Below are positions 3,001 through 63,637 of a stretch of DNA of 64,000 bases, in pieces. The notes below the pieces were generated by a model. The model did no database searches and was not told the DNA's origin. It saw nothing but the letters and a program-made list of their open reading frames with translations. The stretch lies in assembly GCA_964106915.2 (NCBI GenBank), contig OZ066914.1, one strand, 5' to 3'. The number at the start of each line of letters is the position of its first letter. Within the stretch, counting starts at the first letter, position 1. This DNA is from Podarcis gaigeae (Eukaryota). The position numbers and the translations under genes are program-made.

Positions 3001-4202
3001 AGAGTAGTCTTGCTTCACTGCTGGAGCAACAAAAATGTAAGAGGGAGCTTAGAACCAGTGAAGGGTGGTTGAGTTGGAGGCAGGGACAAAGGGAGGACTT
3101 AGGTTCCTCTCCAGCTTAGATTTTAGACCTGAATGATTGCTTTGTACTGAGGCTAGCAATTAAGCTTTTCTTGGGCTTATATCCCAAACACTGTTTGGAT
3201 AAGTCTGATAAATCAAAAGTCTCACCCTAAAGTGCATTTGCATGGACTAACCATTTGTCAGTTAACCCTGTTGGAAGAGAATACTGCAGTGAGTTAATTT
3301 GGTGGAAATAGTAAAGCAGCCCATTTTAAATCAAGATTTACCGTAAGTCTTGCATTCCATGTGTCCTCTTACAATCCACTTTCTCATTATACCATTATAC
3401 ACTTTTATTGTTGAGTAGTATGTTTTACTACATTTCTGTATGAACCTGTACAAAGACATTATAAAGTGTTTCATTTTGCTGACTCCAAGCTAATACTAGT
3501 TTAACTTCTGAGGGCATGCTTTCATAACCATTCTTTTCTGAAATGTTTGTCCTACGAGCAGAGACTTTATGACCTTTCTGATCGCTTCATTAAAAAAGGG
3601 ATATAGTGTCAATACTATGTTGTCAGGGGCAGTTCCTGAATACTTTTATAATGCCTTACCTGTTATTGAGCAGTGTGTGGCTGCTAATATTCAGTAGAAA
3701 TATATATTAACTACTAGTTTCACCACCATCATGCATAGTTTTGACAGACATTGCAGTACAAATAATTTTTAAAGTGGGTGGCTTCCCTGTATCCCAGGAG
3801 TTACATGGGAGTGAGATATTCCTAATATATGGTGAGACAGATAATTTAGAGCTTTAAAGGTCAAAGCAACATCTTGAATGGCATCTGGAAACCAGCAACA
3901 TTGCAGTTGCTGCAGGTACTGTTATGTGACCCTGCTATCCTGTATCAGGCAGGAGGCAAGTTATTGCATTTTGTCCAAGCGTAAATTTTCCAAATGCTTT
4001 AAGGCAATCAGATGCATGTTGTGTAAAGATTCCTTCTGTCTAGATATAGCAGACTGAATGCAGATAGTAAAAGACTTGTGTTGGCTATATCTCTCACTCA
4101 TTTAACTAATATCAGAGGCAGAGCCAAAATCTCTCCTGGACTGCAAGCATAATTGACAAATGACAACAGATTAATCAAATACACCTCACTGTCCCCTGCA
4201 AT

Positions 4203-4321
4203 ATAAGGGTCTGGTGACTTCTCTTTCAGTGTATCTGAAGAAGTGTGCATGCACACTAAAGCGTATACCAAGAACAAACTTGGTTGGACTCTAAGATGCT
4301 ACTGGACATTTTTTTTATATA
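4203..4321 (+). mobile_element. Penelope-like fragment with a degenerate hammerhead (4231-4268)
   Basis: gtatctgaagaagtgtgcatgcacactaaagcgtatacc...gatgctactgga; 13-bp TSD TGTCCCCTGCAAT at 4190-4202 and 4322-4334. Confidence 0.75.
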
Positions 4322-26300: not shown

Positions 26301-29300
26301 TGCTGCCTCGATCCTCTGTGTTAGTGTGGAAGGCAGATTCATCCCAGGGACAGCTGTGGAAATGATGTACATTGAAGCGTAAGGAAACTGTTCCAGCAAT
26401 GATTATATTTATACTTGTGACTAATACCCACTGTGCAAGTCCAGAGCCCCATGCAGGTTCAGAGTCAATTTGATGTGTTGCGTAGTGAAAGAGAATAAGA
26501 TGCGAGTTGGCAAGCTAATGATTCAAATGTTGGGCATGAGCCTGCTGTATAGATGTCTCCGATTCTCAGCTCCCCACTTACAATATAGAGCTGTTGTAAG
26601 GGCTACTGAGGCCCCAAACCAGATGTGTGCAGATTTGGTAAACATTAATTTGCCACTTTCATCGTAAAGTGGAGATGAAGAATCTATATGCATTTTTTTA
26701 AACAAAAAAGAGTACAGAGGGGAAGCGATTCTTGGCCGCCTTCCCAGAATTCTGCTTGAAGACCCCCCCTCCCTTATTAACTTTCAGTATCTGAGACAGC
26801 CTGAGGGACAGAGGGTTAAAAGCAGCAGAGCAGAGGTAAAGCAAGGGAGGTGGAGGGTTGCACTCCCACCCCCACTAAATTTAATGACAAAATACTCCCC
26901 CAGCACCCCCCATTGGCAGCGGCATCTTTAGCAAACATGTGCATATCTGGTTTTTGACCTGAAGATGTATGTGAAATGCTTTGAATGCACGTAAGCCCTT
27001 ATATGGGGATGCGGGAGGCGCTGTGGGTTAAACCACAGAGCCTAGGACTTGCCGATCAGAAGGTTGGCGGTTCGAATCCCCACCACGGGGTGAGCTCCCG
27101 TTGCTCATTCCCTGCTCCTACCAACCTAGCAGTTCAAAAGCATGTCAAAGTGCAAGTAGATAAATAGGTACCACTCCGGCGGGAAGGTAAACGGCATTTC
27201 CGTGCGCTGCTCTGGTTCACCAGAAGTGGCTTAGTCATGCTGGCCACATGACCCGGAAGCTGTCTGCGGACAAACACCCGCTCCCTCGGCCTATAGAGCG
27301 AAATGAGTGCCGCAACCCCAGAGTTGGTCACGACTGGACTTAATGGTCAGGGGTCCCTTTACCTTTACCTTTTAAGCCCTTATATGAAAGTCAAGTGGTG
27401 TTGTTATTATGCCTCTTACTATTATAGTTTTATCTAAGTCAGGAATCAGAAGCCTATGGTCCTTCAGATTTTGTTAGACTCTAGCTCCCATCAGCTTGAG
27501 CTAGCAGGGCCATTTGGCAGGAGTGGTAAGGGTTGCACTACAGCCGCATGTGAAGAGCCAAAGTCCCCCCCCCACCTGATTTAAGTCCTGTGCTTCCAGT
27601 GGTTCACCTGACCTCTGTTTCCATAAACTAAACTCTCTAGAGCTGCTGATGTGATATATTTAACTATTTTAAAATGCAGCTGAACTTTGCCACGGATGCT
27701 TGAGAGCCAGTTGCTGCTTAATAAACAGCTTAGCTTAAAGATGCCAATATTAAAGCTGTTATTCTAAACTCTGCTACTACACTCTATAATGCTTAATGGT
27801 AATATTTCAGCTCATGTGGGAAATTGATTGTAATATTGCCCCTTGGTGGTTGGATGAATTAGTACAGGTCTCCAAACATTGAATCTCAAATCAGTACAAT
27901 AATTTTGGGGATACACTTGCACAGAGCTTTGAAGAGAAGCCAAAGTTGTTTTTTTAAAACAAAAAAAAATTCCTTCCAGTAGCACTTTAAAGACCAACTA
28001 AGTTAGTTCTTGGTATGAGCTTTCGTGTGCATGCACACTTCTTCAGATACGCATGCACACGAAAGCTCATACCAAGAACTAACTTAGTTGGTCTTTAAGG
28101 TGCTACTGGAAGGAAATTTTTTTTGTTTTGACTATGGCAGACCAACACAGCTACCTATCTGTAACTTGTTTTTTTAAGTCACCCCTTTAAATATGTAGTA
28201 TATATGTGGAAATATATAAAGCAAATATATCTGGCAGACTGAAAGGTACAACTTTGGTATTAATCTGATAGAGGGAAGAAGGAAATCTAGAAATGTACTG
28301 TGTGGTATATTCCATGCTCCTGTAATGATTTGAATTTCTTATATCATCTTTCTTGGTTTTTTCCTTTAGGACCTTATAGTTGATCAGACAATAGAGAAGG
28401 TTTCTTTCTGTGCTCCGGACAGGAATTTTGATAGGGCATTTTCTTACATCTGTCGAGATGGCACAACACGACGCTGGATCTGTCACTGCTTTATGGCTGT
28501 AAAGGACACGGTAAGCTGCTTTTAGGATCACAAAAAAGGAAGAGGCCATTTCCAAATTATGTCACTTGTCTAGAGAAATTTAGCTTTCTTGTGGCAATCT
28601 TGTCTTTTAAGAGCAGTGCATTCAACAGGCTCAGATATTTGAAACTGGAATGTTAAAATGCTGTAGCTAGTGTAAATCATGTATGTTTCTTAATACAAAC
28701 AAGGAACCTAATGTGCTTACAGAGCATGGATTGCCATTTTAAAAAATGGTACAGTATCTGCATTATGGATTTTATAGCACCAATATTTCAGTATATGAGC
28801 TGACTGAACAGCATTAACACCTGGCAGCTAAAATATATATTTAAAGTCTTAATCCATGTGTATGTCTCATGTCTCTCATAACCTGTGCTTTATCTGGATG
28901 TAATAGTTCTGAATTCTGCTGACCAGAATTTGTACAGAGAAGGGAAGCTTGCACTGAGTGCCAGCTATTATTTGGCAATGTTTGGAGGAAATATGTAGTT
29001 CCATTTTGGTTTCTAAATGACGCAATATCTTTTCAGGGAGAGAGGTTGAGTCATGCAGTTGGCTGTGCGTTTGCAGCCTGCTTGGAGCGAAAGCAAAAGA
29101 GAGAGAAGGAGTGTGGGGTGACTGCCACCTTTGATGCCAGCAGAACCACATTCACAAGAGAGGGGTCTTTCAGGGTTACTACAGCAACTGAACAAGCAGA
29201 AAGAGAGGAAGGCATGAGGCAGATACAAGACACAAAAGGTAATGGGGTACAAGTCTGGCTATTGGGAAGTTCTTAATCAAACTACCATTTTACCTGGCCT

Positions 29301-32300
29301 GTCATTTTAAATAAAAGTGAGATTATGAACCCTACTGCAAAATAACTTCATTATACCTTTTGATAAGGTTTTGGACCTAAAATATCCTCAGTAGGCTCCT
29401 GAGAGCTTTGGATTTTGCAGAAACAGAGATATAGTGTGTTGTGTATTCTGCGAGTTAGATTGAGGAGGAGGGATTAGTGTAACTCATTAATTTCCCGTGT
29501 TTCTGAGCTTGATTTGTCTAATATAGGCATGGAGAACCTTTGACCCTCTAGAAAGGGCTGTGCTACAACTTCCATCATCCCTTGCCATTTGGCCATTCTT
29601 GCTGGGACAGGTAGGAGTTGTAGTTCAGCGATCTCTGGAGGGCCAACATTTTGCCACTCCTAGTCTAATACTTTGGTTTCTTAAATACTAAAGGAGCACC
29701 TGCAGATTTCATGGCCTGCAGCACTTCAGAGCCAGTGATCTTGGAAAAAGTAATAATGATTTACCTAGTTGGTTAAGAATAGAAGCTGTCTTAACACATA
29801 GACTCTCAAACAATGGTTGCATCTTCATGACAAGATAGAGCAGATAATCTTTTAGTACACTTACCGTATTTTTCATCCTATAGGACGCACCTCGTTTTTT
29901 TGGGGGGGGGAATGAATAATAAAAAAATTATTCCCCCCCCAGCCGCGGCTGCTGCCCCAAGCCTTGCACACACCGGCCCGAAGCACAGGGCGCCTTCTGG
30001 AGGGCGCTGCGTGCTTCGGGCGGCATGCTGCCGCCCCAAGCCTTGTGAGCCCGCGGGAACTCCCACCGGGCTTGCAAGGCTTGCGGATAGCTTCCTGAAG
30101 CCTGGAGAGCGAGAGGGGTCGGTGCGCACTGATGCCTCTTGCTCTCCAGGCTTCAGCGAAAGCCTGCATTCGCCCCATAGGACGCACACACATTTCCCCT
30201 TTATTTTTGGAGGGGGGAAAGTGCGTTCTATGGGGTGAAAATTACGGTATATTTTCACTCTTGACTTCGTAGACATGTATTTGCCCCCTACATATTAGGT
30301 TCCCCCCACCCAGCCCTTTAAATAATGACTGAAATTGTTAGTTTCCTTTAGAGGTATGTGGGGCATAGGCACCAATACAGTTGGGAAGTGTGTAAATTAA
30401 GAAGTGGAAGAAGGCGGCAGGTCTTGGAGCTATTCTCGAACAAATCATTTAAATGAGCTTCTCTGTCCCATATCTTGGCGTACTGTTGCTTATTTCACCA
30501 CATTTAATTCAAATATGCCTGGAAAATGCTTAATGTAGAACACAATATTCTGATAAGATGTTTGCAATTTTAGTTTCATTATCTGGAACGACACACTGAA
30601 GACCAGATTCTACTACCTGGTCCTGCTAGTGGAAGCCTGCTCAGGGACTTCCACTACTGCAATGGGGGCTTTCCCCTTCTCTCCACTCCTTGCCCACCCA
30701 CCCCAAATTGGCTTGTTGGGGGGGGGGGGACTGGGGCAAACTGCAATACAGTATGTGAGGGAAGCTTATTCCATTGGGAAAGCAAGAACGCTTAAACTGA
30801 TAGGATTTTTGAAAAAGCGAAGCACTGAATTGCTCCCTATACATTTCTGTCAAATCTCTGACAGATCAATGTGCAGCATCTCCATGGCTCTTTGCTATGC
30901 AAAAGCCATTCATTAATGGCTTATTATTTTGTGTGATGTCTATGAAATGTTCAAACAGATAAAAGACTTAAATCCAGCTCTAGAGGGCCATTTGTAGTGA
31001 ATTCGAGCATAAACAATAGCAAACAACCAAACCCACAGCAGAGTATTTCAGAGGGCTTAAAATCTTGATTAAAAGCAGCAGCTTTAACTGCCTTCCTAAA
31101 CGCAAGCCGTGAAACCAGTGCAGATCTCTCAAGGGAGTTCCAGAGGTGGGGGCAGCTACAGAAATGCCCCTGTCGTATGTTATGGATACCTGAAGGGACA
31201 CTGAGAGGGGCCTCTGTGAAAGATCTACGTTCTCAGGCAAGATTATATGGAAGGAGGAGGTGGAGGAGGCATTTCAGGTAATCTGGCCACAAGCCATTTA
31301 GGTCTTTATAGGTAAAAATGAGGACTTTGAATTGCATTCAGAAAGGAATAGGTATCCAGTGCATTTGTTACAAAAGGGGAGTAACATGAGTCCTATACCC
31401 CCTATACCCCCATAAGATGCCTAGCTGCAGCAGTCTGAACCAAATGACATTTCTAAACAGTCTTCAAAGGCAGCCCCATTTAGAGTGTGTCAAGATGAGA
31501 GGCGATTTGCTCCATCCTGATCTTGAAACAACAGAGCAGTAGCAGTGAAGGCGGAAAATGGAATTAATAACGAGTCATTATTATCGTTGAAATGTTTGCT
31601 AAACTAACCTGGATAGATTAAGAGACTAGTTAATTGTACCGAGCACTGTCTCTCCAATAGACATGATAAAAATGCAAAAAACAATTACTGTAGAANNNNN
31701 NNNNNNNNNNNNNNNNNNNNNNNNNNNNNNNNNNNNNNNNNNNNNNNNNNNNNNNNNNNNNNNNNNNNNNNNNNNNNNNNNNNNNNNNNNNNNNNNNNNN
31801 NNNNNNNNNNNNNNNNNNNNNNNNNNNNNNNNNNNNNNNNNNNNNNNNNNNNNNNNNNNNNNNNNNNNNNNNNNNNNNNNNNNNNNNNNNNNNNNNNNNN
31901 NNNNNNNNNNNNNNNNNNNNNNNNNNNNNNNNNNNNNNNNNNNNNNNNNNNNNNNNNNNNNNNNNNNNNNNNNNNNNNNNNNNNNNNNNNNNAATGATAA
32001 AAAGGTCTCTTTAGCCAATATCCCTGTATTAACTTTTTCCTGCTATTTTTTCTCGCAGTTGAAACTGATGTGAAAGCGGCGGTGTCAAGTGTTGTACCTG
32101 GCAATACAGCCCCATCACCAAGTTCCCCAACCTCTCCTAGTGCTGAGGTTGCATCCTCTGCTGACAAAGAGTCAAATAACCCCCATGCTATCCCACGAAG
32201 ACACGCTCCCATAGAGCAACTAGCCAGACAAGGCTCGTTCAGAGGTTTCCCTGCTCTTAGCCAGAAGATGTCCCCATTTAAACGACAGCTCTCTTTGCGA

Positions 32301-54600: not shown

Positions 54601-57600
54601 CCAAGGCAGTGAGTGGTAGCTAGTGTGTGCGTCAGAATGGAGTGCAGTGGCTGGAACCCCGAGCAGCGCTCCACACTGCAATATTCTGTTGCAGGCCACA
54701 TATAATATAGAGAGAGCTTCCACTGGTACTCATCAAAATTTCTGTGTCTAGGAATTCTAAAATATAAGACTCATGTCAACGTCCTCCACTCACCCAAAAG
54801 CTTCTGTGATGTTAATAGGTTTCAGTAGGGCGGGTTCCACCACAGGGGTGGGTGCCAGGGGTCAAGCTCACCTGTCAGAGGACACTGGCCGCCCATCCTT
54901 CTGCCATTCAACTCTGGAGAAGCGGGAACTGCCTGCCTTACAGAGAAGACGGATGCTTTGTCCCAAGCCTGCCTCCACTGCTGAAGACTCCGATCCATCC
55001 AAGAAGACCCTGAAAGACATACTGTAGTTAGCCCAAAGTTCAAAGGCTGCTCTGAAAGGACAGGGTGGTAAATGCATAACTGCTGATAGAGAGAAAAAAC
55101 ACCTGACGCTTTTGCAAGGGCAATAGAGTCTGGAGTAACTAATAATAGCATTTTACCCTGTGGGTCCATGTTAGGCAGAGCTGGAAGCAGTCTGCATGTT
55201 GCTAAAGCAAGGAAACAGTGGGAGAAGAGTCTTCTGCAGACTGAAGAGACAGTGCAAACCGACTGGGGTGCTACTGGAAGGAATTTTTTTTGTTTTGACT
55301 GTGGCAGACCAACACAGCTACCTATCTGTAACTGGGGGAGAAAGTTAAACCTTCTGCATCACATGCATACCAGACCCAAAATTCATAAACACACACTTCT
55401 CTGGAAGACCAGTTCTTGACCCAGAACAATCTTTATCTAGATGAAGGGCCAAACCATGTTGTCATATCCAAATGCCTATCTTTATAATAGGGGTGGGGAG
55501 TCTTTGGACCTCCAGATGTTGCTGTACTATAACTCCCAACAGCCACAGCAAGCCAATGGCCAAGGAAGGTGGGAGTTGAAGTTCAGCAACACTGGGATGC
55601 GGCAAAGGTTCTCCATTCCTGCAGTAGAGTGTTCAAGAGCTGGGGCCTTTTAGCTAACTGTCTTTTGTTATCCAAAAGGCCCCAGTAAGAGTTTGAAGTT
55701 ACTCGCAACAGACCACAGCTGCCAGGCATTAGAATCCAGCACGAGTCAGGAGAGATACAGCTGACTACAAGTCTGTTAGCAGACACAACTCATTCACATC
55801 CCTTTGTGAAGTCAGTGGTTGTGGGTGTACAAAAATGAATGCACGGCCACTTTAAAATTTAAAAAGAAAATACTGGTACTGGGTAGCTCACATTCCCAGG
55901 GGGTGGAGGGGATTAGTCCTGTGTCAGGCTTATATTGGAATCCTTTATGATAGGTTGTCTGTCCTCACCCTGCAGCAAAACAATCTCATGCTGCAGAAAA
56001 CAACGCCTAGCAGAGACGCCTGCTATTGCAAAATATTACCTGTTTAGAGAATGAGGGAAGGAAGAGCTTGCTGAGGCTTGGCGCTCAAATCCATTCACTA
56101 CTGATCCATCTGCTGCAGATTCTCTCCTCCACCCTTGATGCTCACGGTGAACTGTCTGCCGCCTCTCAGAGTGTCCAGAGACCACAGTTTCCCCTAAACC
56201 ATGAAGGTGGTTTGCTGGATCCTTCCTTCTTTCCCCCATTCCTTGCTGAGACTCAGGCAGGCTATCTATAGTCATGGTCCTTCCCCAGCCTCTCTCCCCA
56301 TGACGTAGCAATGAGTGAGTTTCTGAGTCAGTGTGTGCATGGAAAGCCCCACCTCCTCCTCCTCCTCCTCCATGGCTATGACTCGTGGCTCCTCTTGCAG
56401 GCTGCTGTTGGTGCTGCTCCTCTGCAACTCCTCCCAAGTGAGAACTAGAGTGGATGTTAGGAACTGCAGCATGGTGGTGGTGTCCCACATCACTCCCTCC
56501 CACTGATCTATGGCAAGTTTTCATGCACTCCTCTTCAGAAGCAAAGTTGTTGTTGTTGCCGTGGCAGCCCCCATACCAGAACCGATTGCATTTCCCAACG
56601 TCATGTACAAAGTACCAGCGCGTAGTCCAATCTGAGCATGGGCCATGGGCGCTGGGCAGCAGGCAACCGATAGGATAAGCTAATAGGAAATGTCAGGAAA
56701 GAAGCAGTTGTTATAGATTAAGCAGATACACAAATCTTCTTCTGACCACATCCCCACTCAGGGCTCATCCATGCTTCTCTTTGTCCCATGCCTAGAAAGC
56801 ATGGGTCTGAGTGATTTTCCCCTCTGCCCCACTCCTTTCCCATGGAAAACCCGCTCTTTAGTGTTAAATCGGAACAAATGTCAATCTGGAGAAAACCCAA
56901 ATTGCCATTTGTTCTGAATGAGCTTTAAAGAGCAGGTGCCCCGGGGCGGAGGGAAGCAGCAGGACAAGAGGAAGTGTGATAAACACAAAGAGCAGGTTTT
57001 CCAGGAGCAAGTGGCAAAGTCCTTTGGAGCCACACCTAGAAAGCACAGGATAAGTGGGAAACTTCTCAGGCCCAAGCTTTCTTGGCATGGGACAAACAGA
57101 AGTGTTCATGAGCCCCAAATCGCTGTTTGTCTGTAAGATGCTCAGTAAATAAACCCAGATGACAATATGGATCAGGAACTTGAAGCCTGCTATCAATCCT
57201 TGCTCATTCACTACAGGTTGCTTAGGCACAGCAAAACTATTTTCTACTGTGTGATTTTGTTGTAGTCTTTTTCAATAACTGTGTGTACAGCTAGTACAAG
57301 TAAACAATAAAGTCAGATGTGTACTAAAGCACAGACCAGTCCAGGATAGACTGTGCAAAGAATGTTGCCCTATTCATGGCGCAAGGGCAACTGGAGAGTG
57401 TTTTCACTCTGGGAGGAGGTATCAGATAAGAAGCAGTGGGATAACCACACACTCTCTCAGACTTGCCTACCCCTCACCACATACCATTCCCATCCTGTCA
57501 CTACTGCCCAGGTCTCAACTGTTGGAAAATCATGCCAGCGTTCCTGGCAAAAAGGATGCTATGGCAGTACAAAGCAGTCACTGGAAGCTTAGATAAATGA

Positions 57601-63499: not shown

Positions 63500-63637
63500 C
63501 AGTGGTTCTCAACCTGTGGGTCCCCAGATGTTGTTGGACTACATCTCCCATCATCCCTGAGCTCTGGCCTTGCTAGCTAGGGGTGATGAGAGTTGTAGTT
63601 CAACAACATCTGGGGACCCACAGGTTGAGAAAGGCTG
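63500..63637. mobile_element. Young palindromic hAT MITE (SPIN-like terminus)
   Basis: CAGTGGTTCTCAACCTGTGGGTCCCCAGATGTTGTT...AACAACATCTGGGGACCCACAGGTTGAGAAAGGCTG; exact TSD CTCTAGAC. Confidence 0.85.

Follow-up and report, generated by a model that had tools for sequence, protein, structure and literature searches.

An intron of NUMB in the lizard Podarcis gaigeae holds a long hairpin, and the minus strand of this hairpin reads as a hammerhead ribozyme. The locus raises the question of where such an insert comes from, by which mechanism it was made, and whether it does anything for the gene in which it lies. The window, i.e. the whole stretch of 64,000 nucleotides that was analysed, was taken as the starting point, and the insert was then compared with its relatives elsewhere in the genome, with DNA and RNA sequencing runs, and with the published literature on Penelope-like elements (PLEs).

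Structure of the insert and its hammerhead motif

The preliminary description of the window had reported near-perfect reverse-complement arms with a 16-nt spacer, a 12-bp target-site duplication (TSD) around the hairpin, and a location about 200 nt upstream of the NUMB exon encoding the PTB domain, all of which was borne out. The arms (27956-28034 and 28051-28129) are 79 nt long each and 97% complementary, the spacer is 16 nt, the duplication is exact, and the exon starts 204 nt past the insert (Table 1). A long stem had been expected in NUMB-sense RNA, and the predicted fold of the plus strand agrees with this (-140.6 kcal/mol, z -22.8, with 0 of 200 shuffles equal or better). Presence or absence across relatives was checked in DNA contigs: two related organisms lack the insert, a single contig in each joining position 27945 directly to 28166 (DNA runs X17 and X20, contiguous record coordinates). 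The 220 bp are therefore a true insertion plus one target copy, which confirms the 12-bp duplication. Contigs of DNA run X15, which may be the assembly's own sample, cross from both flanks into the insert. The 220 bp were gained in the Podarcis gaigeae lineage, and the insert is young.

Table 1. Features of the insert and its surroundings (leader coordinates are counted from position 0, the first base of hammerhead helix I)
Feature	Position	Strand	Basis
Target-site duplication, left copy, 12 bp	27946-27957	+	Exact repeat of 28166-28177; empty-site junction of relatives
Tailless arm, leader positions 0 to ~+93, complete to the predicted start site, junction without extra C	27956-28050	-	97.9% identity to the pLTR of copy L077; end classes
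Hammerhead motif of the minimal type I kind; cleavage would fall between 28017 and 28016	28013-28050	-	Core by inspection against the minimal-hammerhead features in the available text of PMC4209133; putative ribozyme
Hairpin loop, 16 nt; minus strand carries the helix I 5' strand together with the CUGAAGA box	28035-28050		Inverted repeat and fold
Tailed arm, paired part, leader +16 to ~+94, begins within helix II	28051-28129	+	98.3% identity to the L077 pLTR over +16..+130
One-sided 36-nt tail between two putative RT start sites; element ORF begins with the ATG at 28134, its first 10 codons lying in the tail	28130-28165	+	Same codons open the ORF N-terminus of long copies
Target-site duplication, right copy	28166-28177	+	Exact repeat; empty-site junction of relatives
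NUMB PTB-domain exon, host context outside the insert	28370-28510	+	Pfam PF00640; 47/47 residues identical to two PDB Numb chains; plus-strand spliced RNA reads

The bases of the hammerhead core on the minus strand (28050 to 28013) read exactly as first written: a 4-bp helix I, then CUGAAGA with one additional A, followed by helix II, GAA and the palindromic AGCU, with the predicted cut after 28017. All core features of the minimal hammerhead are present (C3-U-G-A-N-G-A9, G12-A-A, U16.1-H17, helices I and II, palindromic helix III), and their agreement with the features in the available text of PMC4209133 upholds the assignment to the published minimal type I kind. The metazoan PLE hammerheads of that source likewise have a short helix I, a long helix II, an extra base between positions 9 and 10.1, a G10.1-C11.1 pair and a palindromic helix III, and pairs of motifs on opposite strands are noted there as well; here, unlike in that text, one copy is truncated within helix II and the other lies enclosed in a stem of 79 bp. 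The sense arm had been described as truncated within helix II and lacking CUGAAGA, and the plus strand from 27601 to 28400 indeed holds no CUGANGA box.

A search with covariance models did not recover the motif. An Rfam scan of the window at E<=1 returned 7 matches and no hammerhead family, which is a weak test for a minimal form without helix III, and the ribozyme call therefore rests on inspection of the core. Matches of the hairpin to microRNA-like families were sub-threshold and were rejected as matches of shape only. Two other palindromic repeats (63527-63610 and 55515-55593) received weak Rfam mir-5408 scores far below threshold, and are presumably members of a small palindromic transposon family. 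The same intron also holds a tRNA-derived SINE-like repeat (~27007-27365), which we take to resemble Sauria SINE, and the window contains a run of 297 N at 31696-31992.

The further proposal that ribozyme folding competes with the hairpin in antisense RNA fared badly. Such RNA would make the complementary arm first; in the predicted folds, forcing helices I and II costs 36 kcal/mol over the free fold, with a helix I pair probability of about 1e-25, and in nascent antisense prefixes the hammerhead fold costs 29-36 kcal/mol. The hammerhead is predicted to be locked away inside the hairpin, where it would be the element's own passenger. Two 40-nt copies of the motif are predicted to co-fold via both palindromes.

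The parent element and a family of stubs

The 36-nt one-sided tail with its ORF codons, the membership in a large family and the lack of an Rfam hammerhead match were absent from the preliminary description; the Penelope-like origin, which it had proposed, was substantiated by related long copies with reverse transcriptase (RT) and GIY-YIG domains and a pLTR layout. The parent is an endonuclease-bearing (EN+) Penelope-like element. Long copies carry ORFs of 921-966 aa, with frames above 900 aa in 4 of the 6 examined; in the ORF of L163, RVT_1 scores 45.5 bits (cut-off 29.6) at residues 438-586 and GIY-YIG 25.0 (cut-off 22.6) at 808-856. The order pLTR-ORF-pLTR is found in L166 (pLTR -233..+130, ORF of 921 aa, pLTR -299..+98), and L163-L165 have shorter 5' pLTR pieces. 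The element ORF starts 99 nt past position 0, and the insert is therefore made up of two head-to-head copies of the leader, the tail of one holding the first 10 codons. Copies L163-L168 are mutually 98.6-99.5% identical and four of them have open frames above 900 aa, which indicates that the family moved very recently or is still mobile. The frame of L163 has a Cys motif at aa 784, after YIDD (565) and before GIY-YIG, which marks a Cys-rich linker, as is described for Neptune and Nematis in the available text of PMC8557442; with the vertebrate host, this motif would make the parent Neptune-like. Two other pieces of the same family lie in the window on the plus strand: an older single pLTR piece at 4201-4306 (-30..+75, 90.6% identical), in which the GAA box and the palindrome of the hammerhead are altered, and a short tailed stub at 55267-55333 (+64..+130, 97% identical), for which no inverted partner was found.

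Units like the insert are abundant. Of 2,690 candidates, 40 were scored, each of which matches almost the entire unit at 93-100% (self included), and a genome-wide search for the exact junction pattern gave 1,775 matches against 0 for the reversed control. As 10 of the first 100 junction matches were double counts, these suggest about 1,600 loci, which is a lower bound because exact matches alone were counted. A further 2,889 exact copies run upstream past position 0, into the TATA box and the ORF end.

Siblings of the insert were sampled from the 100 junction matches listed. Ten were left out (6 duplicates, the NUMB-intron locus, L003 and the last two), and from the resulting 90 loci 4 duplicates and 3 loci without a mappable second arm were dropped, leaving 83. 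All 83 come from a single contig, within its first 50 Mb, and the proportions of end classes given below apply to this sample alone. To be selected, a unit had to have one arm that extends to 0 and to include +26..+41 in both, which kept arms beginning at the ribozyme cut (+34) out of the sample; elsewhere, +34 was the arm start in 0 of the fewer than 20 inverted partner arms mapped in 44 loci.

One arm ends at about +131 and the other at about +94 in 79 of the 83 siblings, the remainder comprising 4 units with no tail and 0 with two tails; a single tail is likewise found in 20 of 21 longer inverted pairs. Duplications of at least 8 bp (range 8-18) flank 72 of 79 siblings and 4 of 79 mismatched controls. 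At the junction between the arms, microhomology (22), blunt joining (16) and extra bases (41) all occur among the 79. Since junctions vary between copies, each unit was made anew and does not spread as a unit. In L130, L149, L059, L057 and L050 the inserts at the junction (16-59 nt) consist of the final bases of the cDNA in several short repeats, as if RT had run off the RNA 5' end and re-primed repeatedly, which is reminiscent of telomerase-like realignment or of templated insertion by Pol theta.

The NUMB-intron insert is an ordinary stub of this large family and is not special to NUMB. Neither do the units resemble other compact repeats: the fixed ends, fixed TSD length and copying as a unit that characterize MITEs and non-autonomous DNA transposons are replaced here by variable TSDs, variable junctions and a one-sided tail, and the non-LTR retrozymes of a 2026 preprint (10.64898/2026.07.22.740005), which in its available text treats tandem units, are head-to-tail arrays with hammerheads, whereas the unit here is single and head-to-head.

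Mechanism of insertion

The reading favoured here, with a probability of about three in four, is that the insert is a young, dead-end Penelope-like insertion in which two head-to-head leader copies were reverse-transcribed from both nicks of one staggered cut. Its observed components are the parent element, a fixed 5' end, 3' ends fixed at two points some 37 nt from each other with a tail on only one arm, the variable junctions, the duplications of 8-18 bp and the empty sites of relatives. The remaining steps would be as follows. The pLTR promoter would produce a capped sense RNA beginning at helix I of the hammerhead; RT would begin within the leader RNA, at +94 and +131, onto the two nicks; one cDNA would reach and run off the RNA 5' end, often with an added C; and the second would usually halt early, in or before helix II, after which the ends would be joined. 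A single RNA, or a single source locus, is the likely origin of both cDNAs.

The +94 and +131 ends match two internal RT starts mapped in vitro for Poseidon_Ac (PAc) of the green anole, for which both strands were cut and extended (PMC11167929, available text). In that element, as here, the two starts define the tail, the hammerhead lies at the junction of pLTR and ORF, and its cleavage is unnecessary for insertion. The PAc ORF begins at helix II, in contrast to 99 nt past position 0 here, and the Cys-rich linker of the P. gaigeae element is another difference; inverted genomic stubs, their 5' ends and the alleles of their arms are not analysed in the available text of that paper.

The same layout is in part familiar from EN+ Penelope insertion units, which comprise, in the available text of PMC3846280 and PMC8557442, an inverted 5'-truncated pLTR, a one-sided tail of 30-40 bp and one TSD, and these three elements are all found at the NUMB-intron locus. 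Head-to-head pLTR pieces, a one-arm tail (36 nt here) with the first ORF codons, a TSD around the whole unit, and TATA and Inr-like motifs in the pLTR are shared; unlike those units, the stubs have no ORF body, and a minimal unit is mass-produced with a fixed 5' end and an excess of C. Searches of openly available papers listed none that describes twin priming or a signature of the cap in stubs of PLEs; the supplementary figures of PMC11167929 may show similar stubs. The layout of inverted pLTR, tail and TSD is already known and the locus is an ordinary member, the signal that the family carries on mechanism being modestly interesting.

The relation between the two arms bears on how the second one was made. 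Completeness was confined to the tailless arm in 57 of the 79 siblings and to the tailed arm in 12, both arms being complete in 9 and neither in 1. A variant at +46 was present in both arms of 40 units, in neither arm of 38 and in one arm of a single unit, so that the arms agree in 78 of 79, whereas rare variants were common to both arms once and one-sided 21 times. The identity of the arms therefore arises at insertion and not by later conversion, and gene conversion was ruled out as its source. Among the longer inverted pairs, 4 of 20 are discordant at +46 (p 0.006); one of the four, L174, has no clear duplication and may represent two insertions. The concordance could also come from bursts of single source loci. 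The two +46 alleles may differ in age (0.19% vs 0.39%, p 0.05).

The strongest competitor, though improbable, is that the second arm results from self-priming, by fold-back on one template, which would be either an antisense RNA, as proposed in the available text of PMC3846280, or a single self-folding cDNA. The head-to-head layout and the palindrome at the junction, to which that text draws attention, speak for it; the shared allele on both arms would be accounted for, and the 12 inserts in which the tailed arm alone is complete fit. A fold-back of the cDNA should, however, leave the tailed arm as the complete one, yet the tailless arm alone is complete in the majority of siblings. An antisense template leaves unexplained why the ends fall at the sense-strand start site with an extra C, and the discordant long pairs carry different alleles on what would be one template. 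The data favour a capped sense template over the antisense template of PMC3846280, and the two-nick origin of the arms is retained.

The case for a capped template comes from the 5' ends. Of 87 full arms, 81 end at 0 to -3, which is 30-33 nt downstream of the TATA box at -33. Among the loose ends listed for three DNA runs (87, 104 and 76 contigs) and for 4 of 4 RNA runs, position 0 likewise ranks with the strongest, and these runs are independent of the selection of the sibling sample. Among ends followed by untemplated bases, the first such base is C in 17 of 22 at position 0, as against 2 of 22 truncated ends at which C could be scored (p 9e-6). RT copies a cap as C, and the untemplated base resembles such a copied cap; from the sequences, a capped RNA start at position 0 would be expected. 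Against the cap, the 45 of 87 ends that lie at -1 to -3 are not enriched in C (2 of 22) and must have arisen in some other way, for example by re-priming or microhomology, and the NUMB-intron insert itself has no extra C. In the four raw RNA runs aligned to the pLTR no pile-up of starts or ends is listed at position 0, which speaks against both the start site and the cap; nor is one listed at the ribozyme cut, an absence that carries no weight on cleavage.

It would be conceivable, though unlikely, that position 0 is a splice acceptor or a place where RT stalls at the hammerhead, with the two-cDNA model otherwise kept. Acceptor-like bases lie just upstream (pyrimidines, then CAG ending at -2), 40 of the 87 ends fall at -1 or -2, and an intron of D. 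virilis Penelope ends at helix I (PMC4209133, available text). Against this, no constant upstream exon appears among the 41 junction inserts, the 2,889 exact copies read through position 0, and the TATA spacing and C excess fit a transcription start.

The origin of the arms at two nicks can be carried one step further, tentatively and at somewhat less than even odds. The approximately 1,600 leader hairpins may be a fossil record of Penelope insertion in which a dimer of the element protein would bind one capped sense RNA at two start sites and copy it onto the two nicks left by a staggered cut; the copy nearer the cap would run off the 5' end, with the other stalled behind it.

RNA editing, NUMB and the meaning of the family

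The stem had been put forward as an ADAR substrate, and this stood in part. In X23, an RNA run of a relative, 24 of 37 changed places are A>G or T>C, compared with 6 of 28 in the DNA run of the same label, which is from another individual. Among the rows listed, six arm sites are strand-specific as expected of A-to-I editing and stay below 0.3% in the same-label DNA; at 28086, for example, 0 of 69 reads are changed on one strand vs 53 of 141 on the other (X23). A strand-biased difference that is not A>G was found as well (28125 G>A, 3/200 vs 91/208), which means that private variants of expressed copies can mimic editing. The X23 reads derive from sibling copies, the source organism of the RNA runs being without the NUMB-intron insert, and when RNA runs were placed on the pLTR at 85% likeness, older subfamilies hid any editing signal. 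The reads thus look A-to-I edited at the level of the family, and belong to siblings of this insert. More than 40 K hyper-edited sites are reported for lizard Penelope in the available text of PMC5625713, where these elements and a palindromic frog Harbinger are, as here, self-folding repeats in pre-mRNA that serve as ADAR substrates; Penelope editing is given there without a stated structural reason, and head-to-head stubs would supply one.

It is very unlikely that the insert is a working regulator of NUMB, as an antisense ribozyme switch, a small-RNA source or a splicing element. The stem is very stable, the minus strand has a complete hammerhead core, RNA of the stub family has an editing-like pattern, and at 28117-28140 a T-rich stretch with AG after it looks, by eye and unscored, like a cryptic acceptor. 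However, two relatives do without the insert, sibling inserts are only 0.2-0.4% off the reference, and the hammerhead fold is predicted to be strongly disfavoured, even in nascent prefixes; according to the available texts, single minimal hammerheads failed to cleave in vitro (PMC4209133), and the ribozyme of the anole PLE required its protein (PMC11167929). Nothing supports a NUMB-specific role for an insert that is young, absent from two relatives and one of about 1,600 alike, and nothing here shows an effect on the gene. NUMB pre-mRNA would form the stem, which would probably be edited as sibling copies are and would most likely be functionless.

Two last readings, namely that the hairpin is a MITE-like element or retrozyme spreading in one piece, or an artefact of fold-back in the assembly, would suit the many similar units and their long terminal inverted arms, and can practically be dismissed given the copy-specific junctions, the variable duplications, the one-sided tail, the clean empty sites in relatives and the X15 contigs (possibly of the assembly's own sample) spanning both flanks.

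As a young transposon stub in an intron, the locus is of little weight. The family is a large natural data set on PLE insertion, and a prediction follows from each of three features, i.e. the C that resembles a cap, the allele shared by the two arms and the bias towards a complete tailless arm. The stubs also seed ready-made dsRNA stems in host pre-mRNAs. If the reading of a protein dimer on one RNA is true, the question of sense versus antisense template would be settled, and one mechanism would explain the inverted pLTR and its tail as well as the heavy A-to-I editing seen for Penelope in lizards.
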